A stretch of 64,000 nt of DNA, from assembly GCA_030827125.1 (NCBI GenBank), contig JAURFD010000003.1, forward strand, positions 193,607 through 257,606. The letters run 5' to 3'. Within the stretch, counting starts at the first letter, position 1; every line of letters begins with the position of its first letter. The position numbers and the translations under genes are program-made. A model generated the notes under the pieces. It was not told the origin of the DNA. It made no database searches and saw nothing but the letters and a program-made list of their open reading frames with translations. Source of the stretch: Candidatus Nanopelagicales bacterium. GTDB lineage: Bacteria; Actinomycetota; Actinomycetes; S36-B12. Shown in pieces: positions 25,135 to 52,943 of this stretch.

Positions 25135-25151
25135 CGTGACACCCTAAGGGA

Positions 25152-28605: not shown

Positions 28606-28639
28606 GGCCCCATCCCACCACGGCGGGCCACACAAGACG

Positions 28640-28669
28640 GTGGGGCCCGGCCAATTGGCCGGGCCCCAC
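28640..28669 (-). terminator. Perfect GC-rich palindrome, likely terminator of the betaine operon
   Basis: GGGGCCCGGCC-AATT-GGCCGGGCCCC (28642-28667), extendable by flanking pairs. It lies 24 nt downstream of the opuAC stop on the minus strand. No U-tail. Confidence 0.5.
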
Positions 28670-28692
28670 TGGTTAGTGCGGGTGAGCGTCGA

Positions 28693-29727: not shown

Positions 29728-29864
29728 TGATCCTCCCCAGAGGCCACGATCGGTGATGGACCTCGATTGTTGTTGGAATCGTATGGACTTACCTTGGTCG
29801 TTGTCCCGGTCTCCCGGTAACGGATGCGTATCGACGACGATCCTGAGCTCCCACGATGCGGGAA

Positions 29865-31823: not shown

Positions 31824-31838
31824 CGGTCGCCCCTCAGA

Positions 31839-32912
31839 TCAATCGCCAAGTTCCGGCGAGCGCTCGCCCGCGATCAGAGCAAGGACGTCATCGCTCGACA
31901 CATAGCCCACCATCGTGCCCTTCTTCACGACGCGGATCGGCGGGACCGACGAAATGATGACCGGAGTCGCCTCCTTGATGATCATTGCCGCCTCAAGGGT
32001 CGGCCCGTCATCGGCTTCTCCCTCTCGCAGGGGTCGCGCAATCACCTCCAACGTAAGGACGTGACTCTTGGGAATATCGCGCAGGAAGTCGGCAACGTAG
32101 TCATCGACCGGGTTGAGCACGAGATCCATGGCCGTGCCCATCTGGACAATCGCGCCATCGCGCATGATCGCAATGCGATCACCGAGTTTCATCGCCTCAG
32201 CGAGATCGTGAGTGATGAACACCATGGTCTTTCCGAGTTCTTGGTGCAGGCGTTTTACCTCTGCCTGCATGTCGCGTCGAATCAGGGGGTCCAGTGCGCT
32301 GAACGGCTCATCAAGGAACATCACATCGGGATCCACCGCGAGAGCTCGAGCAAGGCCAACACGCTGCTGCATGCCGCCGGACAGCTGCTCAGGGTAGGAG
32401 GATCCGTACCCGGCCAGTCCAACGAGTTGGATGACCTCCTCGGCGCGGGCATAGCGGACATCCTTCTTGACGCCCTGGATCTCCAGTGGGTACGCGATGT
32501 TGTCGATGACCTTGCGGTGCGGCAGCAGCCCGAAGTGCTGGAAGACCATGGAGAACTCGGTGCGGCGCAAGTGCCGCAACTGCTTCTCATTGGCAGCGAG
32601 GATGTCGTCACCCTCGATGAGCACCTCACCTGAGGTGGATTCGATGAGCCGAGTCAGGCAGCGTACAAGGGTCGACTTGCCCGAGCCCGACAGACCCATC
32701 ACGACGAAGACCTCACCATTGTCGACATCGAAGGTGACGTCCCGGACGGCGGCGGTACAGCCAGTTTCGGCGAGGAGCTCGTCCCGGCTGAGATTTGCCA
32801 GCGGTGTGCCCACCACCTTGTCCGCCTGCGGCCCGAAGACCTTCCACAGATTGCGGACGGAAATGGCGGGGCCCGCCCCGGTCGTGGACTCACTCACCAG
32901 GTCCTCCTTCAA
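31839..32912 (-). CDS. opuAA: Betaine/proline ABC transporter ATP-binding protein
   Basis: Walker [10 protein letters not shown], signature LSGGMQQR, Walker [12 protein letters not shown], and a C-terminal regulatory extension. Confidence 0.9.
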
Positions 32913-34398
32913 ACCAGCCGCTGGGAGCAGCGTTCAGGCGTCGATAGACGTGCTTGGCTTCGAGGTACTCGTGGAAGCCTGTGGGTCCGAGTTCGCGGCC
33001 GACCCCGGACTGCTTGAAGCCACCCCATTCAGCCTGCGGGAGATAGGGGTGGAAGTCGTTGATCCAGATGGTTCCGTGGCGCAGCGAAGCGGCCACTCGC
33101 TCGGCCTTGCCCGCGTCATTCGTCCACACCGCGCCGGCAAGTCCATACATGGTGTCGTTGCCCAGAGCGATCGCCTCATCCTCGGTCCTGAACGTCTCCA
33201 CGGTGAGCACCGGCCCGAATGACTCGTCTTGGACGCAGGTCATCTCGGTGCGGCATCCGTCAAGCACGGTGGGACGGTAGTAGTGCCCGTCGGCGAGCGC
33301 GGGGAATTCGATCGAATTGGGACGTTCACCACCGCACCGAAGAACCGCGCCCTCGGCGAGTGCGGACGCCACGTAGGCCTCGATCTTCGCCAGATGCTGC
33401 GCTGAGATGAGCGGACCGGTCTCCGCGGCCTCATCGAACGGGCCGCCCAGTCGGATGCGCTGTGCTCGCCGCACGACCTCATCGACGACGACGTCGTGCA
33501 CCGACTCCTCCACGAGGAGTCGAGCTCCCGCCGAACACACCTGACCGCTATGGAGGAACACGGCCGTGAGCGCGTTGTCGATGGCCGCATCAAGATCGGC
33601 GTCGGCGAAGACGATGTTGGGATTCTTGCCACCGAGTTCGAGTGCGACCTTCTTCACCGTAGCGGCCGCATCGGCCATGATGCGGCGGCCTGTGAGGAGC
33701 CCTCCCGTGAACGACACCATGTCGACATCCGGGTGAGTCGCGAGCGGGGCACCTGCCGTGACGCCCGCCCCGAGGACGAGGTTGCCGACCCCCGGAGGAA
33801 GCCCGGCCTCGGCCAGCAGTGTGACCAGATGGATGGTCGTGCTCGGGGTGAGTTCGCTGGGCTTGAGCACGAAGGTCGTGCCCGCAGCAAGAGCCGGCGC
33901 CACCTTCCAGGCTGCCTGGAGCAGTGGGTAGTTCCAGGGCGTAATCAGGCCACAGACACCGACCGGCGAGTACTCAATCCGCGATCGCACTCCGGGGTCC
34001 GCCACATCCACGACGCGGCCGCCCACGGCATCGCCGCAGGCCAAGCCGGCGAAGTAGCGGAAACAACTCGCGACGTCGGCCACGTCGTAGCGAGACTCGA
34101 CGATGCGCTTGCCCGTGTCGAGCGACTCAAGCCGTGCGATCTCTTCGGTGTCACGCTCCAGCAGATCTGCCACCCGCGCTAGGAGCTGACCACGCTCGGA
34201 GAGCGGGACGGACGACCAGCGGCCGTCGTCAAAGGCCCGGCGGGCTGCCTCGATGGCACGCACCGTGTCGACGCTGGTGGCCTCGTCGACCACGCGGACA
34301 AGGTCGCCGTTGGCCGGGCAACGAATCTCGCGGGTGCCGCCCTCTGCAGCGGTCACCCACTCGCCATCAATGAACAGGTCAGGCATGCGTGTCAGCAT
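32890..34398 (-). CDS. betB: Betaine-aldehyde dehydrogenase (ALDH family)
   Basis: Catalytic Glu LELGGKNP and catalytic Cys GQVCSAG. Overlaps betA at its start and opuAA at its end. Confidence 0.85.
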
Positions 34399-36058
34399 TC
34401 TCGCGACGGCGCCGATAGAACGGCACGTGTTCGGCGGGTAGCGGCGTGTTGCCCTTGATGATGTCGGCCGCCTTCTCCGCCATCATCATCACCGGCGCAT
34501 AGATATTGCCGTTGGTCACATAGGGCATGACGGAGGCGTCGACGACACGCAGACCCGCCGTGCCATGCACCCGCATCGTGAGGGGATCCACGACGGCCAT
34601 GTCATCGATGCCCATCTTGGCCGTGCAGGAAGGGTGATATGCCGTCTCGCCGTCGCGGCGGACCCACTCGAGGATCTCCTCGTCAGAACTCACCTCGTGC
34701 CCTGGTGAGATCTCTCCACCGCTGTACGGTGCGAAGGCGGGCTGCTCAAGAATCTCCCGCGTCTTGCGAATCGCCTCGACCCACTCGCGCCGATCCTGCT
34801 CGGTCGAGAGGTAGTTGAACGTGAAGGCGGGCTCGGCGAAGGGGTCCGGGCTGGTGATCCGCAACGAGCCGCGGGCGTCGGAATACATCGGCCCGACATG
34901 CACCTGGTAGCCGTGTCCCTCCGCGATGGAGGTGCCGTCGTACCGCACCGCGATCGGCAGGAAGTGGTACATGAGGTTGGGGTACTCCACGTCCTCGTTG
35001 CTCCGGATGAAGCCGCCCGCCTCGAAGTGGTTGGACGCGCCCGGACCGGATCGCAGGAACAGCCACTGCGCGCCGATAAAGGGTCGCCGCCAGAACTGCA
35101 GGTTGGGATTCAGCGACACCGGCTGGGTGCAGGCGTGCTGAACATAAACCTCGAGGTGGTCTTGGAGGTTCTCCCCCACTCCCGGCAGGTCGTGGATCGG
35201 ATCGACGCCGACAGCGCGGAGATCATCGGCCGGTCCGATGCCGGACAGTTGCAGGAGCATGGGCGAGTTGAAGGCACCACCGCACAGGATCACCTCGGAA
35301 CCACGTACGGCGATCGGGCGCTTGCCGCCGAGGGCAACTTCGACGCCGCGGGCGGTCGGAGTGCCGCTCGAGGTGTCCATGATGATGCGCGTGACATGCG
35401 CCCGCGTCTTGACGGTGAGGTTGGGCCGCGACATGGCCGGCCTGAGGTATGCCTTGGCGGCTGAGTAGCGACGACCGTTGTGCAAGGTGCCGTCGAAGGC
35501 CGCAAAGCCTTCCTGCTTGTAGCCATTGACGTCGGCCGTGAGTTCATGACCGGCTTCCTGCACGGCTTCAAAGAACGCGGAGAAGAGGGGATTCTCCACC
35601 TTGCCGCGCTCGAGGATCAGCGGACCGTCCTTGCCGCGCCACTCGTCAGCCCCGGCGCGACAGTCCTCCATCTTCTTGAAGTAGGGCAGGCAGTTCGCGT
35701 AGCTCCACGAATCCATGCCCGGGTCAGCGGCCCAGCGTTCGTAGTCCAGCGGATTGCCCCGCTGGAAGATCATCCCGTTGATGCTGCTCGAACCCCCGAG
35801 AACCTTGCCACGGCCGTGATAGACGCGGCGACCGTTCATGAACGGCTCGGGCTGGGACGAGTACATCCAGTCGTAGTACTTGTTGCCGATGGGGAACGTC
35901 AGCGCCGCCGGCATATGGATGTAGACATCAAAGGGATAGTCCGGTCGTCCCGCCTCCAGGACCAAAACCGTGGTGCCCGGGTCCTCTGTGAGCCTCGCGG
36001 CGAGCGCCGAGCCGGCTGAGCCGCCCCCGACAATGATGTAGTCGTATCCCTTCGGCAT
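34379..36058 (-). CDS. betA: Choline dehydrogenase (GMC flavoprotein)
   Basis: [22 protein letters not shown] fold, [18 protein letters not shown], and C-terminal GMC signature with the active-site His region. Confidence 0.88.
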
Positions 36059-36086
36059 CCCGCAACCCTAGTAAGACCGTGGTCCG

Positions 36087-37526
36087 TCAGTCCCCGAGTT
36101 CCGCACGCCGGCGTACGACGTACTCGTGCAACTCCTCGCGGATCGCCTCATCGAGAGGCGGGGGCTCGTACTCCTCGAGTCGCTTCTCGTAGATCTCGCG
36201 AGCTCGCTCCTCGGTATCGCGTGCCCCGAGTCGAGTCCAGCGCTCAAAGTTGTCGCAGTTCCACAGCCAGGGCCGATAGAAGCAAGTGCGGAACCGCTCC
36301 ATCGTGTGTTCGGCGCCGAGGAAGTGCCCGCCGGAGCCCACCTCCTCATGCGCGCCGAAGGCAAGCTCCTCATCGCTGAAATGCACCGGAGTGAATTCAT
36401 GCTGGAGGGACTCAAGCGCCTGGGTGTCCATGACGTACTTCTCGAAGGAGGAGACGAGTCCACCCTCGAGCCATCCAGCCGCATGCATGACGACATTCGT
36501 GCCAGCGAGGAATGTCGGCAAGAGCGTCATCAGGGTCTCGAATGCCGCCTGCGCGTCGGGCACCTGAGCCGAGTTCATGCCCCCGCCGGTGCGGAACGGC
36601 AGCCCGAAGTGCCGAGCAATCTGGCCGGTGCAGAGCAAGCCGATCGCGGACTCCGGGGTGCCGAACTGCGGAGCCCCTGACTGCATGTCGATATTGGACA
36701 GGAAGGAGCCGAAGACCACCGGCGCACCCGGATTGATCAGTTGCGTCAGAGCGATGCCGGTGAGGGTCTCCGCAATCTGTTGCGCCAGGGTGGCGGGGAT
36801 GGAGACCGGCGACATGGCACCCATGAGGAGGAACGGCGACAAGATGACGGGCTGGCGAGCCCGGGCGTAGGCGAACTGCGCCTCAAGCATGCGGTCGTCC
36901 CAGCGCAGCGGCGAATTGCAGTTGATGAGGGAAATGCAGACCGGGGTCTCCTCGATCGCCTCTCGCCCGCCGAAGAGAATTTCGCTCATGCGAATCGTGT
37001 CTTCTGCGCGTTCCCCGCTGACAACATTTCCCATGTAGAACTTGTCGGTAAGGGTCATGGCGGCATAGAGCATGTCGAGGTGGCGTGAATCCAGCGGCGC
37101 ATCGTTGGGCTCACACACGACGCCGCCCACGCTGTCCATCACGTCGAAGGACTGAGCGAGCTTCGCGAAGTCGCGGAAGTCCTCCATCGTGCCGTCGGCT
37201 CGCCGGTCTCCACGCCGGACGAACGGAGGGCCGTAAACGCTCGAGAACACCATGCTGTCGCCACCGACATGCACACTGCGCTCCGGGTTGCGCGCCTGGA
37301 GGTCGAATTCGCGCGGAGCCTTCGCGACCTGCTCAAGGACGAACTCAGGATCGAAGAAGACCTTGTCGCCGTCAGTGCGCATTCCCGCAGCGGCAAAAAT
37401 TTGCACCGCCTCCGGTGCCATGAACTCGACGCCGAGTTCGGACACAATGCGTCGCCATCCACGATCGAGGACAGCCATGGAGTCCTCGGAGAGGATCTCG
37501 TAGCGGGGCATGGTGTTCCGGAACAT
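36087..37526 (-). CDS. MttB-superfamily (trimethylamine methyltransferase family) substrate:corrinoid methyltransferase, non-pyrrolysine, MtgB-like
   Basis: Uninterrupted 479-aa ORF with no in-frame TAG. Family-typical length and sequence blocks (LINCNSPLRWD, GAMSPVS, GWLEGGL). GAGGAG RBS 7 nt upstream. First gene of the bet/opu operon. Confidence 0.88.
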   Translation of the reverse strand: MFRNTMPRYEILSEDSMAVLDRGWRRIVSELGVEFMAPEAVQIFAAAGMRTDGDKVFFDPEFVLEQVAKAPREFDLQARNPERSVHVGGDSMVFSSVYGPPFVRRGDRRADGTMEDFRDFAKLAQSFDVMDSVGGVVCEPNDAPLDSRHLDMLYAAMTLTDKFYMGNVVSGERAEDTIRMSEILFGGREAIEETPVCISLINCNSPLRWDDRMLEAQFAYARARQPVILSPFLLMGAMSPVSIPATLAQQIAETLTGIALTQLINPGAPVVFGSFLSNIDMQSGAPQFGTPESAIGLLCTGQIARHFGLPFRTGGGMNSAQVPDAQAAFETLMTLLPTFLAGTNVVMHAAGWLEGGLVSSFEKYVMDTQALESLQHEFTPVHFSDEELAFGAHEEVGSGGHFLGAEHTMERFRTCFYRPWLWNCDNFERWTRLGARDTEERAREIYEKRLEEYEPPPLDEAIREELHEYVVRRRAELGD

Positions 37527-37584
37527 GGCAACTCCTCGAAACGGGCCTCTTGACCGACTTGTCGCGCGATCCTACACTCGACTT

Positions 37585-37602
37585 ATGGAATACTGCTTCC
37601 AT
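37585..37602. promoter_or_regulatory. Candidate operator: perfect inverted repeat ATGGAA-N6-TTCCAT
   Basis: Sits centrally in the 130-bp divergent mttB/iclR intergenic region, the most AT-rich stretch I noticed in the window. It overlaps TANNNT-type -10 candidates on both strands. Confidence 0.4.
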
Positions 37603-37656
37603 ATTGTGAAACATTTTTTGGCCGGAATCTCGGACGACTGAATCGGGAGTCATCAG

Positions 37657-38442
37657 GTGGCAAGCCCCACGGGTACGCAGGCGGTCGATCGGGCCGGTTC
37701 GCTGCTCGTCTACGTGCTCGCGGCCAGCGAGCCCGTGCCGTTCGGCGAACTCGTCATCGCCACCGAGTTGCCCAAGAGCACCCTGTCTCGGCTGCTGTCG
37801 AGTCTGGAGCGCAACGGGCTCGTACAACGGACGACCACCGGTGCCGTTCAGCCCGGTCCACGTATCACCGACTACGCGCTCTCCGTGCGACCCGAGGACG
37901 ATCTCATCCGAATCGCGCAGCCCTACCTCGACGAGCTTGGCGCGCTGACCGGTGAGACCGTCAACCTCGCCGTCGCGGTCGGCAGCGAGGTGCGTCAGAT
38001 CGCCCAGGTTGACTCGACGTACCTACTCGGTGCCGTGAACTGGATGGATCGGCCCGTCCCCTTCCACTGCAGCGCGCTCGGACGGGCTCTCATTGCCTTC
38101 GGCGGCACCCTGCCGCGCGGTCGGCTCAAGGCCTTCACCGATACCACCATCACATCGCGGCGGATGCTGGATACCGAACTTGAGCGAGTACGCCGGACAC
38201 GGATCTCGATCGTCGACTCCGAGCTCGAGCCAGGCCTGGTGGCGGTCGCCGCACCGATTCTCAACGGAGAGCGCATCGCGATCGCTGCGGTCAGCGTCTC
38301 CGGTCCCAGCGTGCGCATGACGCCGGAGCAGATAGCCTCCGTCGCTGACGCGGTCACGCTCACTGCCCAGGGCATCAGCGATGCCGTTCGCCTGAACACT
38401 CGCCCCTCGTCACCCCTTCCCGGAAAGGCTGGAGCCGCATGA
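37657..38442 (+). CDS. IclR-family transcriptional regulator
   Basis: 261 aa. N-terminal wHTH (AVDRAGSLLVYV...FGELVIATELPKSTLSRLLSSLERNGLV) plus a C-terminal effector domain. Its stop overlaps the next ATG (ATGA). Confidence 0.85.
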   Translation: MASPTGTQAVDRAGSLLVYVLAASEPVPFGELVIATELPKSTLSRLLSSLERNGLVQRTTTGAVQPGPRITDYALSVRPEDDLIRIAQPYLDELGALTGETVNLAVAVGSEVRQIAQVDSTYLLGAVNWMDRPVPFHCSALGRALIAFGGTLPRGRLKAFTDTTITSRRMLDTELERVRRTRISIVDSELEPGLVAVAAPILNGERIAIAAVSVSGPSVRMTPEQIASVADAVTLTAQGISDAVRLNTRPSSPLPGKAGAA

Positions 38443-39095
38443 CCAACGACGAGATCCTCAAGGGCCTCTACGACGAGACCATGGTCGGCAACAAGCCGGC
38501 CGTGGTCGAGTTGACCCAGCAAGGTCTTGACTCAGGCCTCACTCCCGAGCAGCTGCTCTTCGAGGCTCTCATCCCATCACTGGAAGAGGTGGGGGCTCGC
38601 TTCGAGCGCGGGGACTGGTTCGTGCCGGAGATGCTCATCGCCGGCAAGGCGATGTCGGCCGCGCTGGATCTGCTCCGGCCGCTGCTGGCGCAGACCGGTG
38701 TGGAGAGCGTCGGCACCTTCCTCATGGGCACCGTGAAGGGTGATGTGCACGACATCGGCAAGAACCTCGTCAACATCATGCTCGAGGGCGCGGGCTTCAC
38801 GGTCATCGACCTCGGAGTCCAGGTGCCGCCGGAGAAGTTCGTCGCGGCGATCGAGGAGCACAAGCCCGACATTGTCGGGATGTCCGCGTTCCTCACCACG
38901 ACGATGCCGATGTTCAAGGCGAACATCAACGCGATCGAGAAAGCCGGACTACGTGACTCCGTTGTCATCATGGTCGGTGGGGCGCCCGTCACCCAGGAGT
39001 ACGCCGACGTCTGCGGCGCCGATGGCTACGCCGCAGATGCCGCGACCGCCGTCCGAAAGGCCAAGGAGTTCGTCGTCGCGAAGCGAGCTGGCTAG
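38439..39095 (+). CDS. Cobalamin-binding corrinoid protein (B12-binding cap plus Rossmann domain)
   Basis: 218 aa. DxHxxG = DVHDIGKN, SxL = SAFL, GG = VGGAPV. Confidence 0.9.
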   Translation: MTNDEILKGLYDETMVGNKPAVVELTQQGLDSGLTPEQLLFEALIPSLEEVGARFERGDWFVPEMLIAGKAMSAALDLLRPLLAQTGVESVGTFLMGTVKGDVHDIGKNLVNIMLEGAGFTVIDLGVQVPPEKFVAAIEEHKPDIVGMSAFLTTTMPMFKANINAIEKAGLRDSVVIMVGGAPVTQEYADVCGADGYAADAATAVRKAKEFVVAKRAG

Positions 39096-39098
39096 CTC

Positions 39099-39551
39099 AT
39101 GAAGCGCCTCATCCCCCTCTTCGAGCACGCGGTCAAAAAGCCCGTGTGGGACTGCCGCATGTGTGGCCAGTGCGTTCTGCACTCGACGGGGATGACGTGC
39201 CCAATGACGTGCCCCAAGACCTTGCGCAACGGGCCCTGCGGCGGAGTACGCGAGGACGGTGGCTGTGAGGTCAAGCCGGAGATGACGTGCGTATGGCTCA
39301 AGGCCGAGCGCCGCAGCCACTCCCCGATCAATCCCGGCCGCTGGGAGGCGGAACTCAATCACCTGCGCCCTCCGGTCAACAATCAGCTCAAGGACACCTC
39401 CTCCTGGATCAACCTCCTCTCCGGGGCCGACCGTCGCGCACCCGCGGGTTGGACCGGGGAGATTGTCGAAGACTCCGCGGACCTCCTCGTAGGAGCAGCG
39501 CTCGTCGAGATCGACGATCCATCGTCCCTCCCGGAAGGCTTCCATTCATGA
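39099..39551 (+). CDS. MTHFR C-terminal-domain protein (MetV-like Cys-rich small subunit)
   Basis: 150 aa with 8 Cys in the first ~75 residues (CRMCGQCV...CPMTCPKTLRNGPCGG...CEVKPEMTC). Its stop overlaps the metF ATG (ATGA). Confidence 0.7.
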   Translation: MKRLIPLFEHAVKKPVWDCRMCGQCVLHSTGMTCPMTCPKTLRNGPCGGVREDGGCEVKPEMTCVWLKAERRSHSPINPGRWEAELNHLRPPVNNQLKDTSSWINLLSGADRRAPAGWTGEIVEDSADLLVGAALVEIDDPSSLPEGFHS

Positions 39552-40495
39552 GCCGCCTATCCGAGTTGCTCGCCAGCGGTACACGTCCGGTGGTCACCGC
39601 CGAGTTCCCGAGCATCGACGGTGGTGGCCTCGCCGCTGTCGAGCGGGCCGTCGCCGACCTCAAGCCGTATGTGGATGCGGTCAACGCCACGGACAACCCG
39701 GCGGCGCATGCGCATGCGTCGAATACGTCGATCGCCATTGCTATGCATCAGTTCGGCCTCGAACCGGTCCTGCAGGTGGTCTGCCGAGACAAGAACCGCC
39801 TCGCGATGCAGGCCGACATCATGGGCGCGGCCCTGCACGGCGTGGAGAACGTTGCCCTACTGACCGGAGACGATGTCACCGCCGGCGACGAGCCGGAGGC
39901 TCGGCGAGTATTCGATCTCGACAGCATCCAGATGGTCAAGGTCGCCGGCGGTCTCGCCGAAGGGCACTACCTCTCAGGAAGGGCCATCAAGGAGCCCCCC
40001 ACACTCTTTATCGGCGCCGTTGAGAATCCGTTCGCGCCGCCCCTGGGCTATCGGGTCGAGCGGGCGAAGAAGAAGGCCGACGCAGGGGCCCGATTCCTCC
40101 AATTGCAGATCGGCTACCACCCCGACCGCCTCGAAGACTTCGTGCGCGGCTGCGTGGAGATGGGCGTCGCCGAGACGACCGCGCTACTCCCGACCATCGT
40201 TCTCACCAAGACCGGACGAGCCCTGTCCTTTATGAACGACTCTGTCCCGGGCATATCTATCCCGCAAGCCACCATCGATCGCGTGGCCGGCGCCGGTGAC
40301 AAGGAAGCGGTCGCGGAGGCCTCCTACGAGGTGACTGTCGAACTCGCCCAGCACGCCCTATCCCTGCCTGGCGTCTCCGGGCTGCACATCACTGACTTCC
40401 GCCATGACGGCAGCCTCGCTCGACTCGTTGAGGACCTGCGCATCGGCCCATCACAGATCAAGGAGCAGCATGCACACCGTCCTCAGCTCGTCTAG
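39548..40495 (+). CDS. metF: Methylenetetrahydrofolate reductase (MetF family)
   Basis: 315 aa, TIM-barrel MTHFR blocks (VNATDNP, VCRDKNR, LLTGDD, GAVENPF, FLQLQIGY). The track ORF is extended 261 nt upstream. Confidence 0.85.
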   Translation: MSRLSELLASGTRPVVTAEFPSIDGGGLAAVERAVADLKPYVDAVNATDNPAAHAHASNTSIAIAMHQFGLEPVLQVVCRDKNRLAMQADIMGAALHGVENVALLTGDDVTAGDEPEARRVFDLDSIQMVKVAGGLAEGHYLSGRAIKEPPTLFIGAVENPFAPPLGYRVERAKKKADAGARFLQLQIGYHPDRLEDFVRGCVEMGVAETTALLPTIVLTKTGRALSFMNDSVPGISIPQATIDRVAGAGDKEAVAEASYEVTVELAQHALSLPGVSGLHITDFRHDGSLARLVEDLRIGPSQIKEQHAHRPQLV

Positions 40496-41333
40496 CGCGT
40501 CCATAACGATCGGCCCCGATCAGCCGTTCTGCATCATCGGCGAGCGCATCAACCCCACCGGGCGCAAGAAGTTCCAGGAGGAACTTCGCGCCAACGACCT
40601 GAGTTCGGTCGAGGTCGACGTGGCCCAGCAGATCGCCGGAGGTGCCATGATGCTCGACGTCAACATGGGCGCCCCGCTCGTCGACGAGGCCAGGCTCCTC
40701 GGCGAAGCCGTGACGCTGGTGCAGTCGCTCACCGATGTGCCCCTGTGCATTGACTCCTCCGTCGTCGAAGCCCTCGAGGCCGGCCTCGCTGCCTACCAGG
40801 GCAAGGCGCTCGTGAACTCGGTCACCATGGAGCGCGAGCGCATCGACCTCATCCTGCCGCTGGTCAAGCGGTACGGCGCCGCGGTGATCGCCCTGCCCAA
40901 CGACGAGGAGGCCATCCCGGAGGATCCGCATCGCCGCCTCGAGTTGGCGAAGCAACTCGTCGGCATCGCCACGGATGAATTCGGTATTCCCATCGAAGAC
41001 ATCGTGGTCGATCCACTAGCGATGCCCGTGGGTGCTGATCACACTCTTGCCCTGAAGACGATGGAGGCCATCCACCTCATCTCCACGGAGATCGGCGTCA
41101 ACACGACGCTCGGCGCCTCCAATGTGTCCTTCGGCATGCCGGACCGCCACACGCTCAATGCCGTGTTCCTCCCCATGGCCATTCAGGCGGGCCTCACGTC
41201 CGCCATTATGGACGCGCGCACAGACCAGATCGTGACAGCGGTGAAGGGGGCCGACCTCATGCGCGGCAATGACGAATGGGGGGCCACCTGGATCTCGCGC
41301 CACCGGGCGAAGCAGGCGGCCGCCGGCGGATGA
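40470..41333 (+). CDS. Methyl-THF:corrinoid methyltransferase (pterin-binding domain, MtgA/AcsE/MetH-like)
   Basis: IIGERINPTGRKKF, LDVNMG, LCIDSS, ALVNSV and GASNVSFG blocks. ATG at 40470 is preceded by AAGGAG and overlaps the metF end by 26 nt. Confidence 0.85.
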   Translation: MHTVLSSSSASITIGPDQPFCIIGERINPTGRKKFQEELRANDLSSVEVDVAQQIAGGAMMLDVNMGAPLVDEARLLGEAVTLVQSLTDVPLCIDSSVVEALEAGLAAYQGKALVNSVTMERERIDLILPLVKRYGAAVIALPNDEEAIPEDPHRRLELAKQLVGIATDEFGIPIEDIVVDPLAMPVGADHTLALKTMEAIHLISTEIGVNTTLGASNVSFGMPDRHTLNAVFLPMAIQAGLTSAIMDARTDQIVTAVKGADLMRGNDEWGATWISRHRAKQAAAGG

Positions 41334-43186
41334 CAGCTTCGCATCACGACGACCTACCCGCCCGGATCACGCTGCGCTACGAACCGGCGGGCAAGTCGGT
41401 TCGTGTCCCCAACGGCGTTAGCGTCTTCGACGCGGCACTGTGGAATGGCGTCGCGGTGGACTCCACCTGCGGTGGGCACGGAACCTGCCGCAAGTGCAAG
41501 GTACGGATCGTCGATTCCGAGACGCCTGTCGCTGCGGCCGACGAGCGCGCCTTCACCCCCGAGCAGTTGGCTGACGGTTGGCGGCTGGCCTGTCTGACCA
41601 CCGCGCATCACGATCTCGTCATTGACGTCCCTGAACTCACCACTCGGCCCAAGGCAGCCACCGTCGGCGTCGGCCGACAGGTCATCCTGCGGCCCGCCGT
41701 ACAAAAGCGCTTCCTCGAGTTGGACGAGCCCACGCTCGCCGATCAACGCACCGACATCCAACGCGTGCGCGACGCCATGGACGACCTCGAGCTCGCCGTC
41801 GATATCGAGGTGTTGCGAACGCTCGGTCGAGATCTGCGCGCGGCGAATTGGGCAGTCACCGCCGTCGTCGTCGGGACGCACCTCGTCGCCCTGGAGGCCG
41901 GCGACACCACCGACCGGCGGTTCGGCGTCGCCATCGACCTTGGCACCACCACGGCCGTAGCGACTCTCATGGATCTGTCCACCGGGGCACCCGTGGCCGT
42001 GTCATCGATGCTCAACCGCCAGCAGCCGTTCGGAGCCGACGTCATCAGTCGCATCAGTGCCACCATGCTCGATCCCGAAGCCCTCGGCCGGCTTCGCGAC
42101 CTCGCGCAGTCGACACTGGCCGATCTCACGGTCGACGTCCTCGTCGAGGCGCGCGTCACCCCCGACGAGGTGTACGAGGTGGCGCTCGCTGGCAACGCCA
42201 CCATGATGCAACTGCTCCTCGGGATCGATCCTGAGCCGCTGGGCGTGGCCCCTTTCATCCTGGCCAGCGCCCACTTCGAAGGCCTGCGGGCCGCAGACCT
42301 CGGCGTACCGATTCATCCGCGGGCGCGAGCAACGGTCTTCCCTGCGCTGGGCGCCTACGTGGGAGGCGACATCGTCGCCGGGGCACTCGCCGCAGGGATG
42401 GATCGCGACAAGCGACTGCGCCTGTTCATCGACATCGGGACGAACTGCGAAATCATCCTCGCCGACGGTGAGCGCCTCGTGTGCACGGCGGCGCCGGCCG
42501 GACCGGCGTTCGAGGCCGCATCCATCTCCAGCGGCATGCGCGCTGCGCCCGGTGCTATCGAGGTCGTGACGATCGACGACGAGGGACTGCATCTCGAGGT
42601 CATCGGTGGCGAGGCACCCGTCGGCCTATGCGGATCGGGCCTGGTCGACGTGGTCGCCGAGCTCGCGCGCGTCGGCTGCATCGATCCCTCCGGGCGCTTC
42701 CTCAGCGATGAGCGGCTCGCCGAGGTGCATCCGGCCCTTGCTCCGCGCTTCATCAATCGTGACGGCGAACGCGTCTTCGTTCTCGCCACAGCTGAGGAGT
42801 CCGGCGACGGCAGTCAAGTGGTCCTGAGTCAGCGGGACGTGCGGGAACTGCAGTTTGCCAAGGCCGCGATCTCCACCGGTTGGCGCTTGCTCGCAGAGGA
42901 AATTGGCGTTGAGGCCAACGACATCCAGCAGGTACTCCTGGCCGGATCCTTCGGCACGTACCTCTCGGCCAAGAGTGCGATCACCATCGGCCTGGTGCCC
43001 AAGATCCCGGCAGCGCGCATCGTCAGCGCGGGGAATGTCGCCGGCGAGGGCGCGAAGATGGCGTTGCTGTCCGAACCGGAGCGGCACGGTGCGCTCGCTC
43101 TCATCGACGAGATCGACTACGTCGAGTTATCTGACCGCACCGACTTCAACGATCGGTTCGTCGATGAGCTCGCCTTCCCCGTCTGA
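41330..43186 (+). CDS. Corrinoid reductive activase (N-terminal 2Fe-2S ferredoxin plus ASKHA ATPase, RamA/RACo-like)
   Basis: CGGHGTCRKCKV..C ferredoxin motif followed by a ~500-aa ASKHA-type domain (DLGTTT, DIGTNCE). ATG overlaps the preceding TGA. Confidence 0.85.
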   Translation: MTASHHDDLPARITLRYEPAGKSVRVPNGVSVFDAALWNGVAVDSTCGGHGTCRKCKVRIVDSETPVAAADERAFTPEQLADGWRLACLTTAHHDLVIDVPELTTRPKAATVGVGRQVILRPAVQKRFLELDEPTLADQRTDIQRVRDAMDDLELAVDIEVLRTLGRDLRAANWAVTAVVVGTHLVALEAGDTTDRRFGVAIDLGTTTAVATLMDLSTGAPVAVSSMLNRQQPFGADVISRISATMLDPEALGRLRDLAQSTLADLTVDVLVEARVTPDEVYEVALAGNATMMQLLLGIDPEPLGVAPFILASAHFEGLRAADLGVPIHPRARATVFPALGAYVGGDIVAGALAAGMDRDKRLRLFIDIGTNCEIILADGERLVCTAAPAGPAFEAASISSGMRAAPGAIEVVTIDDEGLHLEVIGGEAPVGLCGSGLVDVVAELARVGCIDPSGRFLSDERLAEVHPALAPRFINRDGERVFVLATAEESGDGSQVVLSQRDVRELQFAKAAISTGWRLLAEEIGVEANDIQQVLLAGSFGTYLSAKSAITIGLVPKIPAARIVSAGNVAGEGAKMALLSEPERHGALALIDEIDYVELSDRTDFNDRFVDELAFPV

Positions 43187-43778
43187 GAGCCGACCGCGAG
43201 CGCACGCGTCGCGCGCCATCATCACCTGCGGCGCCATCGGGCGCGAGGCCCTGGACTGGGCAGCGGGTCAGGACGTTGCGGTTTATCCACTCCCCCCGGT
43301 CATGCACAACCATCCCGAACAGATCGCGCCCGCCGTCGAGGCCGAGATCATCCGACTGCGCGACCTACATGACGAGATCGCTATCGCGTACGCCGACTGC
43401 GGAACCTACGGCGCCCTCGATGAGGTGTGCACTCGGCACGGAATCACGCGCCTACCCGAACGGCACTGCTACGACCTGCTGTCGACACCCGACGCGCTGG
43501 ACGCGCAGTGGGCCGCCGAGCCCGGCACCTTCGTGCTCATCGACTTCACCGTGGTGGCCTTCGACCGGATGATTTGGCGCGAACTCGGACTTGATCGCCA
43601 TCCGGAACTTCGCGACGACTACTTCGGCCACTTCACCAAGGTCGTCTGGCTGGCGGGTCGGCGTACCCCCGAGATGGAGCGGGCAGCCCACCGGGCGGCG
43701 GAGCGCCTCGAACTCCCGCTGGAGATCTGGCCGGTCGGGGCCGCCCTGGACAACCACCTGACCGAGTTGTTCACCTGA
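43164..43778 (+). CDS. DUF1638-domain protein (function unknown; family assignment from memory)
   Basis: About 204 aa. Last gene of the corrinoid operon, overlapping the activase end by 23 nt. Start choice is uncertain. Confidence 0.65.
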   Translation: MSSPSPSESRPRAHASRAIITCGAIGREALDWAAGQDVAVYPLPPVMHNHPEQIAPAVEAEIIRLRDLHDEIAIAYADCGTYGALDEVCTRHGITRLPERHCYDLLSTPDALDAQWAAEPGTFVLIDFTVVAFDRMIWRELGLDRHPELRDDYFGHFTKVVWLAGRRTPEMERAAHRAAERLELPLEIWPVGAALDNHLTELFT

Positions 43779-43875: not shown

Positions 43876-44550
43876 ATGTCCGTGACGGCCATTCCCCTCG
43901 TTCAACCCGACCTCGCCGAAGGGGCCTCCCAGGCGGATCGGGCCTACCAGGAGATCCGCGCGCTCATCGTCACCGGCGAACTCGGCCCCGGCTCGTTGAT
44001 CAGCGAACCGGACCTCCAAGGGCAACTTGGTCTGGGCCGCACCCCGATTCGCGAGGCCCTGCGCACCCTCGCGCATGAGCGACTCGTCGAGGTCTACCCC
44101 CGCCGCGGCATGTTCGTTGCCGCACTCGATCCGCGCGACCTTTCGGCCCTGTCCGAGGTCCGTGAGGAGAGTGAGCCCTTCGCGGCCCGCCTCGCCGCCG
44201 AACGACGCACCGAGGAAGACCTAGCCGAGATCGAGCAACTCCTGCTCACCATCGACGTCATGGCGTCCGCGCCCGACGCGCGCGGTCTCATCGAACTTGA
44301 CCAGCGCATCCACCATCAGGTCTACCGGTGGGCGCACAACGACTTCCTGCAAGCCGTATGCGCCCAGCACTACATGCACGCACTGCGCATTTGGTTCCTC
44401 GCGCTCGACCGCGTGCCCAATCTCAACGAGGCGGTCACCGAACATCGCGACCTCCTCCTTGCCATCCGCGACGGCGACCCCGAAGTCGCCGCCGAAGTCA
44501 TGTCCCGCCACGTGCGCGGATTCGAAGCAGAGATCCGCCGCGCCATCTGA
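43876..44550 (+). CDS. GntR-family regulator (FadR/FCD subfamily)
   Basis: wHTH SEPDLQGQLGLGRTPIREALRTLAHERLV plus an all-helical C-terminal FCD-like domain. Confidence 0.85.
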   Translation: MSVTAIPLVQPDLAEGASQADRAYQEIRALIVTGELGPGSLISEPDLQGQLGLGRTPIREALRTLAHERLVEVYPRRGMFVAALDPRDLSALSEVREESEPFAARLAAERRTEEDLAEIEQLLLTIDVMASAPDARGLIELDQRIHHQVYRWAHNDFLQAVCAQHYMHALRIWFLALDRVPNLNEAVTEHRDLLLAIRDGDPEVAAEVMSRHVRGFEAEIRRAI

Positions 44551-44589
44551 AACCACCGCACAACCCGAGTGACAACGAAAGAGGAAGCA

Positions 44590-47097
44590 ATGAGCAGTCT
44601 CCCGAGCAAAGCCAAGTGCGTCGTCATCGGCGCCGGCATTGTGGGCAACTCGATGGTCTACCACCTGGCGCGTCTGGGCTGGACCGACATCGTCCAGATC
44701 GACAAGGGTCCGCTGCCCAACCCGGGCGGCTCCACCGGTCACGCGTCGAACTTCATCTTCCTCGTCGATCACAACAAGGAGATGGCCCAGCTCACCCTGG
44801 ACAGCCTTCGCCAATACATCGAACTCGACACCTTCTTCGAGTCCGGTGGCATTGAGGTGGCCCGCACCGCCGAGCGCATGCAGGAGTTGAACCGCCGCGT
44901 GACCTCCGGCAAGTCCTGGGGCGTCGATGGCATGGCCATTTTGACCCCCGATGAGGTCAAGGGGATGGTGCCCTTCATCGATGAAAGCGTCATCCTGGGC
45001 GGCTTCTACACCAAGGGTGTCGGAGTCTGCGATTCATTGCGCGCAGGCACGCTCATGCGAGAGAAGGCCATTGAGATGGGGGCCCTGCAGTCCTTCGCGA
45101 ATGTCGAGGTCAAGGACCTCACGGTCGAAGATGGCCACATCAAGGCCGTGGTCACCGATCAGGGCACCATCGAGGCCGACTACGTCGTCATCGCGACCGG
45201 CTGCTGGAGCCGCCAACTTGCCGCCATGGCCGGGGCCAACATCCCGCTCACCCCTGCCGTTCACCAGATGAAGGACATCGGACCCGTAGCGATGTTCGCC
45301 GACGCCAAGGGTGACCTCGAATACCCGATCGTCCGCGACATGGACACCAACATGTACGAGCGTCAGCACGGCACCGGCCTGGAGATCGGCTCCTACGCCC
45401 ACCGACCGATCCTGTACGACGCCGAGGAGATCCCTTCGAACGCCGAGGCTGCCCTCTCCCCCACCGAGTTCCCGTTCACCCCCGACGACTTCGCCGACCA
45501 GGACGAGCACGCCCTTGAGCTCATGCCCGAAATCGTCGGCGACGAGGGCGCCCAGGAGAAGTACGCCATCAACGGCCTGCTCTCCCTCACCCCGGACGGC
45601 ATGCCGATCCTTGGCGAGACCCCGGAGGTCAAGGGTCTGTGGTCCGCCGCCGCCGTGTGGGTCAAGGAGGGCCCGGGTGTCGGTCGTGCGCTGGCGGAGT
45701 GGATGGTCCTCGGTGAGCCCGAGATCGACCTGCACGCCTCCGATATCGCCCGCTTCTACCCCGAGCAGACCACGACCAAGCACATCAAGGATCGTGCGAA
45801 CGAGGGCTTCAACAAGACCTACGGCATCGTCCACCCGGCCGAGCAGTGGTCCTCGAACCGTGGCGTGCGCAAATCGCCGTACTACGACCGCGAGGCCGAC
45901 CTCGGCGCTGTCTTCTACGAGACCGTGCTGTGGGAGCGTCCTTTCTGGTATGCGTCCAACGCCGGCCTAGTGGAGAAGTACGGCGACGCCGTGATGCCAC
46001 GCACCGCCGAGTGGGAGTCGCGCTGGTGGTCGCCGATCATCAACGCCGAGCACCTGCAGATGCGCGAGACGGCCGGTTTGGTCGACCTCACGGCCTTCGC
46101 CCTCTTCGACATCACCGGCCCCGGCGCCCTGGCGACCGTCCAAGGCGTGTGCATGCGGCAGATGGATGTCGCCGTCGGCAAGGTCGTTTACACCCCCGTC
46201 CTGCTGCCCAGCGGCGGGTGGCGCTCTGACCTCACCGTCATGCGGTTGGGCGAAGACCACTTCCGCGTCGTCACCGGTGGCGCGCACGGCATGTCGGACT
46301 TCAAGTGGTTCAAGGACCACGCGGCCGAGGGCGCGACGTTCACCAACCTCACCGACGACATCTCCACCCTCGGTGTCTGGGGCCCGAACGCCCGCGCCAT
46401 CGTGTCCGCGGTGACCGACGCCGACATGAGCAACGAAGGCTTCCCCTTCGGCACCTGCCGCGAGATCACCATCGCTGGCAAATCCGTCCTCGCCTCGCGC
46501 ATCTCCTACGTCGGTGACCTCGGTTGGGAGCTCTACGTCTCCATGGCCGACGGTCCGGCGGTGTGGGACGCCATCTGGGCGGCGGGTCAAGAGCACGGCC
46601 TCATCCCCGTCGGCATCGGCGTGTACGGCACGACCGGTCGCCTGGAGAAGGCCTACCGCGCGTACGGACCCGAACTCGAGGGCGACTTCAACGTCATCGA
46701 GGCTGGCATGGCCACCAAGAAGGTCAAGGACGCCGACTTCGTCGGCAAGGAGTCCTACCTGCGTCACCGCGAAGAGGAGCCCGCAGCGACGCTGTGCGTT
46801 CTCACCGTCGATGACCACACCTCCTCGACAGGCGAGAAGCGCTACATGATGGGTGGTGAGCCGATCCTCACGCTCGAGGGCGAGTCGATCGTCGATCCGC
46901 ATGGCCGTATCTCGTACGTCACCTCCGCTGGCTCGGCCCCATCGGTCGGCAAGCACATCCTGATGACGTACCTCCCTGCCGAATACTCCACACCCGGCAC
47001 CAAGTTGGCTGTGGAGTACCTCGGCGAGCAGTACCCGGTGACCGTAACCGGCTCCGGCGCACTCTTCGACCCGAACAACGAACGGATCTTGTCGTAA
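44590..47097 (+). CDS. Dimethylglycine/sarcosine dehydrogenase-family enzyme (FAD oxidoreductase fused to a GcvT-like folate-binding domain)
   Basis: VVIGAGIVGNS FAD fold and GGSTGHA (covalent-FAD His region). C-terminal aminomethyltransferase-type domain. ATG at 44590 follows GAAAGAGGAAG. Confidence 0.88.
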   Translation: MSSLPSKAKCVVIGAGIVGNSMVYHLARLGWTDIVQIDKGPLPNPGGSTGHASNFIFLVDHNKEMAQLTLDSLRQYIELDTFFESGGIEVARTAERMQELNRRVTSGKSWGVDGMAILTPDEVKGMVPFIDESVILGGFYTKGVGVCDSLRAGTLMREKAIEMGALQSFANVEVKDLTVEDGHIKAVVTDQGTIEADYVVIATGCWSRQLAAMAGANIPLTPAVHQMKDIGPVAMFADAKGDLEYPIVRDMDTNMYERQHGTGLEIGSYAHRPILYDAEEIPSNAEAALSPTEFPFTPDDFADQDEHALELMPEIVGDEGAQEKYAINGLLSLTPDGMPILGETPEVKGLWSAAAVWVKEGPGVGRALAEWMVLGEPEIDLHASDIARFYPEQTTTKHIKDRANEGFNKTYGIVHPAEQWSSNRGVRKSPYYDREADLGAVFYETVLWERPFWYASNAGLVEKYGDAVMPRTAEWESRWWSPIINAEHLQMRETAGLVDLTAFALFDITGPGALATVQGVCMRQMDVAVGKVVYTPVLLPSGGWRSDLTVMRLGEDHFRVVTGGAHGMSDFKWFKDHAAEGATFTNLTDDISTLGVWGPNARAIVSAVTDADMSNEGFPFGTCREITIAGKSVLASRISYVGDLGWELYVSMADGPAVWDAIWAAGQEHGLIPVGIGVYGTTGRLEKAYRAYGPELEGDFNVIEAGMATKKVKDADFVGKESYLRHREEEPAATLCVLTVDDHTSSTGEKRYMMGGEPILTLEGESIVDPHGRISYVTSAGSAPSVGKHILMTYLPAEYSTPGTKLAVEYLGEQYPVTVTGSGALFDPNNERILS

Positions 47098-47861
47098 TGG
47101 ATATCGCTGTCTGCATCAAGCGCGTACCCCTATCGCCGGGGCGGTGGACCCTCACCGCCGACGGCACCGAGATCGATACCAGCAGCAGTGCGATGGGCTG
47201 GACACTCAGCCCGCACGAGGAATGCGCCACAGAGGCCGCCGTCCAGCTCAAGGAGACGGACGGTGGCACCGTGACGGCATTCACTCTCGGCACACCGGAG
47301 TCCAGCGAGCAGATCCGCGAACTTATGGCGGTCGGCGTGGACCGCGGCGTACTGCTCGAGACCGACGGCGCCGAGTGGGATGCCCAGGCCACGGCCGCGG
47401 CACTCGCCGAGGCGATCCGCGCCGACGAGACCGACTTCTCGGCTGTCATCTTGGGCACTGAGTCGGCCGACGTCTCTGGCTATCAGGTGGGTGTGCGACT
47501 CGCCCACGCGCTTGGCTGGCCCATCGTCACCAACGTCAAGGGCCTGTCGGTGAGCAACGGCGTCGCTCGATGCGAGCGCGTCGTCGGCTCCGAGCGCGAG
47601 GTCTACGAGGTCTCCCTGCCCGCGGTCATCGCGGTCAAGGACGGCGTCAACATCCCGCGTTATCCGTCGGTGCCGGGCCGCATCAAGGCGCGCAAGAAGC
47701 CCATCGACACCGCGAACCCGACCCGCTCGGATCCACGCGTGGAGAAGGTGAGCCTGGCCCTCCCGCCGCAGGAGGCGGGCACCGCCGAGATCATCGGCAA
47801 CGGTCCGGACGCGGCTCCCCGCGTCGTGGAAATTCTCAAAGAGATCGGAGTGCTCGCATGA
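47097..47861 (+). CDS. etfB: Electron transfer flavoprotein beta subunit
   Basis: MDIAVCIKRVP start. ATG overlaps the dehydrogenase TAA by 1 nt (TAATG). Confidence 0.9.
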   Translation: MDIAVCIKRVPLSPGRWTLTADGTEIDTSSSAMGWTLSPHEECATEAAVQLKETDGGTVTAFTLGTPESSEQIRELMAVGVDRGVLLETDGAEWDAQATAAALAEAIRADETDFSAVILGTESADVSGYQVGVRLAHALGWPIVTNVKGLSVSNGVARCERVVGSEREVYEVSLPAVIAVKDGVNIPRYPSVPGRIKARKKPIDTANPTRSDPRVEKVSLALPPQEAGTAEIIGNGPDAAPRVVEILKEIGVLA

Positions 47862-48817
47862 TCCTCGTTTACGTCGACCACGATCGAGGCACTCTCGACG
47901 AACTCTCCCTGCAGGCGATCACCGCGGCCCGCGGGCTGGACTCCGACGTCCAGGCCGTCATGGTCGGGGCGGATGCCGTGGCCCTGGCACCGCGACTCGG
48001 TGAGTTCGGTGTAGGCACCGTGCACGTGGCCGTGGATCCGAGGATCACCGACTACACGCCCATGGCCTGCGGTCGAGCCCTGGCGAGTGTCGCGCAGCAA
48101 TTCCACCCGGCAGCCGTCCTGGCAGTGGGTTCCCCGCGCGGCAACGAGGTGCTCGCGCACGCGGCGGCCATCCTCGACGAGCCCTTCGCGGCCGAGTGCA
48201 CCGAGATCTCCCTTGGTGGCGACGTCGCCACGGTGACGCGCAATCGCTGGGCCGGCAACGTCCTCGAGACGGCCCGAGTGCATGCGTCGATGCTCATCGC
48301 CTCCGTCACCGCCCATGCCTTCGCAGCGGAGAGCATCCCGGGCGCGGCGCCAGCGGCTGTCGTGGAGTTCTCCCCCGAGCTCACCGAGGCTGATCTGGCC
48401 GTACGCGTTATCGATCGCGTCGGCAGCGGTGGTGGTGGGGTGAGCCTCGCTGAGGCCAAGGTGGTCGTCAGTGGCGGCCGCGGGGTCGGCGAAGGCGGCT
48501 TTGGCCCGCTGGAGGAACTCGCCGAACTACTCGGTGGCACCGTCGGCTGCTCGCGAGTCGTCACCTCGGCTGGTTGGCGCCCGCATGCCGAGCAGGTGGG
48601 GCAGACCGGCACCAAGGTCGCCCCCGAGCTCTACTTCGCGATCGGCATCAGCGGTGCGACACAGCACATTGCCGGCTGCAAGAACGCAAAGACGATGATC
48701 GCGATCAACACCGATCCTGAGGCGACGATCATGTCGTACGCCGACTACGCCATCGTCGGCGACGCCGGGCAGATCATGCCCGCGATCGTTGACGCCGTAC
48801 GCGCCGCGAAAGGCTAG
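47858..48817 (+). CDS. etfA: Electron transfer flavoprotein alpha subunit
   Basis: ATGA overlap with etfB. C-terminal FAD signature [34 protein letters not shown]. The track ORF is extended 288 nt upstream. Confidence 0.9.
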
Positions 48818-48819
48818 AC

Positions 48820-50613: not shown

Positions 50614-50685
50614 GCCCCTGTAGCTCAGTGGTAGAGCAACCGCCTTGTAAGCGGTAGGTCGTCAGTTCAATCCTGACCGGGGGCT
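50614..50685 (+). tRNA. tRNA-Thr (anticodon UGU)
   Basis: Hand-folded cloverleaf: acceptor GCCCCTG/CGGGGGC, D-arm GCTC-AGTGGTA-GAGC, anticodon arm ACCGC-CTTGTAA-GCGGT, T-arm GTCAG-TTCAATC-CTGAC, discriminator T. CCA is not encoded. Confidence 0.9.
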
Positions 50686-52845: not shown

Positions 52846-52943
52846 GCTAAATCGATCCTCCCACCGGCAGGTACGTGCCGGACGATCCGTAGTAGGTGGT
52901 GACGCGACCGTCGGTCGCTGGTGTCGAGGCTAGCGAAGGAACC

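Follow-up and report, generated by a model that had tools for sequence, protein, structure and literature searches.

A stretch of 64,000 nucleotides from a Candidatus Nanopelagicales bacterium (contig JAURFD010000003.1; the whole stretch is hereafter referred to as the window) harbors a cluster of genes centered on mttB, which encodes a homologue of the MttB superfamily of the type lacking pyrrolysine (Pyl). This locus quite probably represents an actinobacterial version of MtgBCD, the cobalamin-dependent glycine betaine demethylase, residing within an island of genes for the catabolism of choline to glycine. Glycine betaine, also favored by the original prediction made from the sequence of this stretch, appears to be the best-supported substrate: in 43 of 45 related loci, mttB adjoins genes that make betaine or consume dimethylglycine, three of the four glycine betaine ligands of MtgB are invariant, and a homologue of dimethylglycine oxidase is encoded downstream. 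The gene identities and their linkage are read directly from domain calls and gene order; from them we infer the direction of the pathway, its substrate, and its tolerance of oxygen. The arrangement itself is far beyond chance, as evident from domain E-values across the cluster (1e-17 to 1e-192) and from the gene order kept across dozens of genomes.

A Predicted Methyl-Transfer Kit within a Choline Catabolic Island

Judging by gene content, the window holds a complete substrate:corrinoid:tetrahydrofolate (THF) methyl-transfer kit. It comprises an ATP-dependent activase, has a non-Pyl MttB homologue as its basis, and is physically linked to choline oxidation genes, just as originally predicted. 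The minus-strand operon mttB-betA-betB-opuAA-opuAB-opuAC was recovered with every gene in the expected place (Pfam and NCBIfam searches), and all the genes predicted for the divergent plus-strand operon, from iclR to DUF1638, were found by Pfam; the latter operon begins 130 nt from the mttB gene. At the same time, the coordinates given in the prediction end at 43778. The functional island spans ca. 22 kb (28693-50487), from choline uptake through the disposal of one-carbon (C1) units, and includes the genes from gntR to formate–THF ligase missed previously. The genes of the island are as follows, beginning with mttB and the rest of its operon:

36087-37526, minus strand: MtgB-like non-Pyl MttB-superfamily methyltransferase, 479 aa (PF06253 MTTB); first gene of the minus-strand operon
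34379-36058, minus strand: BetA choline dehydrogenase of the GMC family (GMC_oxred_N and GMC_oxred_C; TIGR01810, 845 bits vs. a cut-off of 732)
32890-34398, minus strand: BetB-like betaine-aldehyde dehydrogenase (Aldedh, 542 bits; best NCBIfam match BADH TIGR01804, 599 bits, below the cut-off of 668)
31839-32912, minus strand: ATPase of an OpuA-type importer (ABC_tran)
29865-31823, minus strand: permease of the OpuA-type importer, 652 aa (BPD_transp_1, two matched stretches)
28693-29727, minus strand: OpuAC binding lipoprotein (OpuAC; lipobox LALAAC)
37657-38442, plus strand: IclR-family regulator, first plus-strand gene (HTH_IclR and IclR_C)
38439-39095, plus strand: MtgC-like corrinoid protein, 218 aa, the putative methyl carrier (B12-binding_2 and B12-binding; motif GDVHDIG)
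39099-39551, plus strand: MetV-like Cys-rich subunit of a MetVF-type methylene-THF reductase (PF12225 DUF5981, 83 bits)
39548-40495, plus strand: MetF, 315 aa (PF02219), proposed to convert methyl-THF to methylene-THF
40470-41333, plus strand: MtgD-like pterin-binding methylcorrinoid:THF methyltransferase, 287 aa (Pterin_bind; NF005719, 311 bits, above the cut-off of 259)
41330-43186, plus strand: RACo/RamA-like reductive activase with a [2Fe-2S] domain and an ASKHA ATPase (Fer2, RACo_linker, Raco_middle, RACo_C_ter)
43164-43778, plus strand: DUF1638 protein (PF07796)
43876-44550, plus strand: GntR/FCD regulator ahead of the downstream operon (GntR and FCD)
44569-47097, plus strand, probable start at ATG 44590: dimethylglycine oxidase/dehydrogenase homologue, 842 aa (DAO, FAO_M, GCV_T, GCV_T_C)
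47097-47861, plus strand: etfB, beta subunit of the electron transfer flavoprotein (ETF)
47858-48817, plus strand: etfA, alpha subunit of ETF (ETF_alpha); ATGA overlap with etfB
48820-50487, plus strand: formate–THF ligase (PF01268 FTHFS, 876 bits); start 3 nt past the etfA stop

Most of the junctions in the first plus-strand operon are overlaps, in line with the prediction, either of the ATGA type (iclR/corrinoid, metV/metF, and pterin methyltransferase/RACo) or longer ones (26 and 23 nt), the exception being the corrinoid/metV junction, which turned out to be a 3-nt spacer. The originally assigned starts of metF, the pterin methyltransferase, RACo, and DUF1638 were revised to 39548, 40470, 41330, and 43164, respectively; independent gene calls on metagenome contigs with an identical MttB protein yielded product lengths equal to those from the refined starts. 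The BetB protein in these metagenome gene calls has 498 aa, so the true start of its gene lies slightly downstream of the end at 34398. The putative ATG 44590 of the gene for the dimethylglycine enzyme is preceded by a Shine–Dalgarno sequence. A terminator scan revealed no terminator-like site between the genes, such sites being fewer than in shuffled controls; hence, the operon ends were placed by spacing.

The second plus-strand gene set (gntR, the dimethylglycine enzyme, etfBA, and formate–THF ligase; 43876-50487) is situated directly downstream of DUF1638. The dimethylglycine enzyme is matched over its full length by the N,N-dimethylglycine oxidase of Arthrobacter (1pj5; 2e-148). By its predicted functions, this set completes the choline-to-glycine/C1 island. 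The G+C content over the opu-bet-mttB operon (28000-38000) is 0.615-0.65 vs. 0.67-0.70 in the 10-28 kb flank; this mild dip could be the mark of an acquired island. A tblastn search of a plasmid collection returned only proteobacterial homologues with at most 48% identity and no actinobacterial plasmids.

The closest entries of the PDB to the corrinoid protein are 1y80 and MttC 7xcn. Its DxHxxG motif is placed at MetH-like spacing, 41 residues ahead of Ser, and the S-x-L motif reads S-A-F in the window vs. S-A-L in Sinorhizobium meliloti. The pterin-binding methyltransferase is nearest to MeTr/AcsE (2yck, 9e-45) and to the folate modules of MetH, and MtgA of Desulfitobacterium hafniense was not among its PDB sequence matches; MtgA has been described as having no sequence identity to known structures (PMC7154762). 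For the DUF1638 protein, no solved homologue was found in the PDB by sequence, and its AF2 model, a confident one (pLDDT 87.7), had no significant fold neighbor there; Price et al. 2018 offer no specific proposal for this family.

The MttB Homologue and Its Putative Betaine Pocket

The predicted uninterrupted 479-aa reading frame was confirmed: residues 3-478 match positions 25-500 of the 500-position PF06253 profile with 638 bits, and the sole in-frame stop is the terminal TGA, with no in-frame UAG. The original prediction had called for an inspection of the residue aligned to pyrrolysine, and the X of the M. barkeri Pyl-MttB structure 7xcl aligns to Met317 in the window protein (codon 317 is ATG). 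The match to the Pyl-MttB equivalog TIGR02369 is 282.8 bits, below the cut-off of 525. Among the PDB sequences, the best match is 4yyc (5e-136), followed by MtgB of D. hafniense (2qne/9yce, ca. 1e-119) and by Pyl-MttB 7xcl (5e-40). The sequence of 4yyc equals that of the extracted S. meliloti mtgB product over the aligned stretch compared. In full-length pairwise alignments, the window protein is 40.4% identical to MtgB of D. hafniense and 46.7% identical to MtgB of S. meliloti.

The Pyl-containing MttB of Methanosarcina barkeri (7xcl) belongs to the same Pfam family and has a homologous TIM barrel, but it has Tyr at the place of the putative carboxylate-binding Arg312 of the window protein, and Pyl in place of Met317. 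A Pyl-MttB acting on trimethylamine was thus ruled out by Met317, the score below the cut-off, and the presence of Arg312.

Mutagenesis and a crystal structure with bound ligand have identified the residues of MtgB that contact glycine betaine: Y97 and F356 engage in cation–pi binding, and R312 and H348 hold the carboxylate (PMC13080624, JBC 2026). In an alignment of the window protein with 120 close actinobacterial homologues, Tyr98, Arg312, and His348 (the equivalents of MtgB Y97, R312, and H348) are invariant. The position of F356 is taken by Gly356 in the window protein, in all 120 homologues, and in MtgB of S. meliloti. Four residues upstream of Gly356, Trp352 is invariant in the 120 homologues and present in S. 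meliloti MtgB as well, which shares the whole W352/G355/G356 signature with the window protein. Judging from this alignment, Trp352 may stand in for Phe356 in cation–pi binding.

Conservation of the Locus in Actinomycetota

A scan of species-representative genomes yielded at least 579 relatives. The best 80 of them are 71-94% identical and, going by record titles, come mostly from Actinomycetota, including cultured Nocardioides (URHA0032, Root1257, N. mangrovi, N. aquiterrae, and N. islandensis) and Phycicoccus; many of these 80 are metagenome-assembled genomes (MAGs) labelled Nanopelagicales, and some MAG names suggest lake water. A protein search returned at least 8000 matches, and contigs in 27 blocks of public metagenome collections carry an identical MttB protein. 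Together with the 94% identity of the best species-level relative, this makes the source an uncultured actinobacterium of high G+C content, in agreement with the gene context of the window.

Gene context was counted in the 45 related loci that extend for 7 kb or more both upstream and downstream of mttB. Every one of them has the core arrangement, cultured Nocardioides and Phycicoccus included, and the individual components were found as follows:

iclR: 45/45 loci
corrinoid protein gene: 45/45 loci
pterin methyltransferase gene: 45/45 loci
RACo: 42/45 loci
DUF1638: 36/45 loci
betA or betB: 38/45 loci
dimethylglycine enzyme: 12/45 loci
betA/betB or the dimethylglycine enzyme adjoining mttB: 43/45 loci
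metV and metF: 13/45 loci

In certain loci, e.g., L037 and L045, the dimethylglycine enzyme and ETF are encoded beside mttB in place of betAB. Since mttB adjoins either betaine-making or dimethylglycine-consuming genes in nearly the whole set, the step from glycine betaine to dimethylglycine is bracketed from both sides. Of all the evidence, these predicted neighbors of mttB speak most strongly for glycine betaine as its substrate. In the clusters of the Nocardioides type (among L024-L080), the corrinoid gene is directly followed by that of the pterin methyltransferase, without metV/metF; therefore, these organisms must oxidize methyl-THF by other means or with enzymes from another part of the genome.

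The homocysteine module (MtgE/Bhmt, PF02574) was sought by tblastn with S. meliloti bmt and was not found in the 64-kb window. A homocysteine S-methyltransferase of the Bhmt/MtgE type adjoins DUF1638 in two Phycicoccus loci (L045, 4078-5016; L064, 4101-4961), its proteins being 39-41% identical to S. meliloti bmt; none was found in the other actinobacterial loci fetched. These neighbors hint at a possible link to methionine synthesis in some Actinobacteria.

Divergent Control Region

The region between mttB and iclR contains the following elements, the first located by a promoter scan and the second by an alignment of 20 upstream regions:

37550-37578, plus strand: promoter-like TTGACC-17-TACACT
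37582-37593 and 37597-37611, between the promoter-like element and the iclR start: a half-site and the palindrome TTCCATATTGTGAAA, respectively

The conserved pattern is TTCCAYNWTRTGGAA, and its copy in the window (37597-37611) has one mismatch, being the sole site in the window with at most one mismatch to the pattern. The exact pattern was present in 45 of 85 fetched loci, mostly as a single copy, and in the loci checked it is situated ca. 40-190 nt upstream of the mttB start. The palindrome is a strong candidate for an IclR operator common to both divergent operons.

Relation to Known Demethylation Systems

The characterized enzymes of this kind known to the original prediction came from strict anaerobes only. 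That view has been superseded by studies of two aerobes. Ruegeria pomeroyi DSS-3 needs MtgC and MtgD to grow on glycine betaine, and it induces its MtgB homologues along with MetF2, DUF1638, and a protein similar to RamA (Mausz et al., PNAS 2025, PMC12478193). The same study found mtg-type genes co-located in S. meliloti and many marine bacteria and assigned 5% of marine mtgC reads to Actinomycetota. With respect to the replacement of GbcAB or BHMT suggested in the original prediction, Phaeobacter inhibens carries both the cobalamin-dependent (mtg) and the gbcAB routes, and its mtgB1 gbcAB double mutant does not grow on glycine betaine (bioRxiv 10.64898/2025.12.19.695462).

The window shares with these aerobic MtgBCD systems (R. 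pomeroyi, P. inhibens, and S. meliloti) the PF06253 methyltransferase, a separate B12-binding protein, a pterin methyltransferase of the MetH/MeTr type, a MetF paralogue (in S. meliloti, MetV too), a RamA/RACo-like activase, and DUF1638, along with the divergent mtgB/mtgC layout and betaine catabolic neighbors. In S. meliloti, mtgB diverges from DUF1638 and the gene for the corrinoid protein; metV, metF, mtgD, and the gene for the ASKHA activase are nearby, and bmt (MtgE) is 6 kb away. The identity of the window proteins to those of the S. meliloti cluster is 47% for MtgB, 46% for the corrinoid protein, 51% for MetV, 34% for MetF, 48% for MtgD, 33% for RACo, and 39% for DUF1638; the S. meliloti counterpart of MetV is labelled as an 'MTHFR C-terminal domain' protein. 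Unlike these systems, the window comes from another phylum, Actinomycetota, and has no MtgE homocysteine module nearby, so a dual role in methionine synthesis, as in Rhodobacteraceae, is not evident here. Another difference is that its kit forms a single tight IclR-led operon in one island with betAB-opuA, the dimethylglycine enzyme, etfBA, and fhs.

The MtgABC system of D. hafniense Y51, reportedly described by Ticak et al. in 2014, is similar to that of the window in possessing a non-Pyl MttB-family enzyme with Y97/R312/H348 kept, a DxHxxG corrinoid protein, and THF as the final methyl acceptor. It differs in F356 (Gly in the window), in the use of MtgA vs. the MeTr/MetH-like methyltransferase of the window, and in its host, which is an anaerobe using the glycine betaine pathway for energy conservation. 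Since the S. meliloti proteins match at 33-51% identity and no match to MtgA was found, the cluster is best regarded as an actinobacterial counterpart of the aerobic MtgBCD and not of D. hafniense MtgABC.

The MtcB, MtpB, MtyB, and MthB enzymes of Eubacterium limosum, operating with MtqC and MtqA, follow the same scheme of three components, in which the corrinoid protein is shared and the activase depends on ATP, and they keep R312 as in the window protein. Still, the aromatic pair of MtgB is not kept in them, their substrates are different (carnitine, proline betaine, gamma-butyrobetaine, and phosphocholine), their host is a strict anaerobe, and no bet or dimethylglycine gene context has been described for them.

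Proposed Pathway

In the pathway suggested by these genes, an OpuA-type importer would take up choline or betaine, and BetA and BetB would convert choline to glycine betaine. The MttB homologue would bind glycine betaine with Arg312 and His348 on the carboxylate and with Tyr98 and probably Trp352 on the trimethylammonium group. One methyl would then be taken by the Co(I) corrinoid, giving methyl-Co(III) and dimethylglycine, and moved from the corrinoid to THF by the MetH/MeTr-type pterin-binding methyltransferase; MetVF would turn the resulting methyl-THF into methylene-THF. Cobalt oxidized to Co(II), presumably a frequent event in air, would be restored to Co(I) by the [2Fe-2S]/ASKHA activase at the expense of ATP, together with DUF1638.

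The next methyl would be removed by the dimethylglycine oxidase/dehydrogenase homologue, feeding ETF, and the C1 units would leave as formate via formate–THF ligase. The IclR regulator would probably control both divergent promoters via the one conserved palindrome. A molybdopterin formate-dehydrogenase-like alpha subunit (Fer2_4, NADH-G, Molybdopterin) and a Nuo51-like FMN subunit are encoded on the minus strand at 54285-58636, 4 kb past the island; this predicted formate dehydrogenase is a plausible catalyst of the final step, from formate to CO2.

A more general proposal, advanced here tentatively, is that the kit of Actinomycetota might constitute a self-contained catabolic module controlled by IclR and its operator, uncoupled from methionine synthesis, and equipped with a Trp352-for-Phe356 pocket; one sub-lineage might run the acetogen-type Fe-S MetVF oxidatively in air.

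Alternative Explanations

Several points weigh against the assignment of the locus to a glycine betaine demethylase. Apart from the absence of Phe356, with Trp352 only presumed to take its place, they include the identity to the proven MtgB of only 40%. The MtyB and MtcB enzymes are 53% identical to each other and yet differ in substrate preference, so identity alone leaves the substrate unfixed. The assignment to MtgB was made from pairwise identities to the D. hafniense and S. meliloti proteins and from pocket residues. The best NCBIfam match of the corrinoid protein, MtgC_2, scores 201 bits, below the cut-off of 370, and that of the activase, AcsV, scores 424 bits, also below its cut-off. 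The 64-kb window contains no genes for cobalamin synthesis or uptake, and an Rfam scan of it detected no cobalamin riboswitch, only a tRNA and the msiK RNA. A literature search found no experimental study of a cobalamin-dependent betaine system in Actinobacteria, which is not proof of its absence.

Some of these points would favor the same machinery acting on another carboxylated quaternary amine (proline betaine, carnitine, gamma-butyrobetaine, trigonelline, or similar), the betaine produced by BetAB being handled elsewhere or kept as an osmolyte. With Gly at the place of F356, the pocket is unlike that of the only liganded structure, paralogues of the MttB superfamily differ in substrate even at the above-mentioned level of 53% identity, and marine aerobes have as many as seven paralogues, the presumed substrates of which are other methylated compounds. 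This explanation nevertheless seems unlikely: mttB heads the betA-betB-opuA operon and the dimethylglycine oxidase homologue follows the kit, betAB or the dimethylglycine enzyme adjoins mttB in nearly all relatives, W352/G355/G356 are common to the S. meliloti MtgB encoded beside mtgC, and the Arg312/His348 pair fits a small carboxylate substrate.

The enzyme could also be a genuine glycine betaine demethylase working only under anoxic or micro-oxic conditions, as opposed to an aerobic route. Co(I) is oxygen-sensitive, MetVF-type enzymes have been characterized only from strict anaerobes (acetogens), and non-Pyl mttB transcripts of Actinobacteria from peat have been taken as a sign of anaerobic methylotrophy. 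On the other hand, in Proteobacteria the homologous system sustains aerobic growth with glycine betaine, the linked GMC choline dehydrogenase and ETF-coupled dehydrogenase presumably need a high-potential acceptor, and the cluster occurs in Nocardioides, a genus described as strictly aerobic. The respiratory context noted in the original prediction was also recognized here in BetA, ETF, the molybdenum formate dehydrogenase with its Nuo51-like subunit, the F420 genes, the core synteny, and the clusters of cultured Nocardioides and Phycicoccus. Overall, the respiratory-type enzymes of the island and the cultured relatives suggest an aerobic lifestyle of the host, and a restriction to anoxic or micro-oxic conditions appears quite unlikely.

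A split methionine synthase, as that of P. inhibens MtgCDE, for which the corrinoid protein, the pterin methyltransferase, the activase, and DUF1638 would mainly serve with only a secondary link to mttB, was rejected as the main role and is very improbable: the homocysteine methyltransferase homologue beside DUF1638 in the two Phycicoccus loci speaks for it, but tblastn found no homocysteine-binding module in the window, the actinobacterial loci fetched besides these two yielded none either, the operon and mttB are divergent with a common candidate operator between them, and the flanks are only catabolic (bet, opu, the dimethylglycine enzyme, etf, and fhs).

Other Genes of the Window

Just upstream of the island, at 22594-26156, there are F420 genes encoding an FbiC-like fused CofG/CofH radical-SAM protein (846 aa, minus strand) and CofD. 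The core context of the window comprises SecA, SahH, MtrB/LpqB, phosphomannomutase, FbiC, and CofD, a typical actinobacterial core synteny. The msiK RNA motif (Rfam RF01747, 58 bits; 52849-52907, minus strand) is located immediately 5' of the gene for an MsiK-type ABC ATPase (51772-52845). A LacI regulator gene and a tRNA (50614-50685) adjoin the msiK region; all these elements are unrelated to the demethylation cluster.

Implications

The glycine betaine demethylase proposed here is best seen not as a novel pathway but as a known one found in a further phylum, since the same kind of system was demonstrated in aerobic marine and soil Proteobacteria in 2025. Published evidence for an aerobic cobalamin route of glycine betaine breakdown is confined to Proteobacteria; an orthologous and more tightly organized version appears to be common in Actinomycetota, cultivable strains included. 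Accordingly organized clusters in Nocardioides and Phycicoccus offer cultivable Gram-positive systems in which the pathway can be tested. The genes of the kit are a likely marker set for betaine/choline turnover and B12 demand in lake and soil metagenomes, and the actinobacterial non-Pyl mttB transcripts should not be read automatically as anaerobic methylotrophy.

Thousands of close homologues are present in Nanopelagicales-labelled MAGs, Nocardioides, and related groups. If active, they would represent a large unrecognized B12-dependent sink of choline and glycine betaine in oxic fresh waters and soils and would create a demand for cobalamin in these communities. The locus provides what seems to be the first detailed view of an aerobic-type MtgBCD pathway in Actinomycetota.

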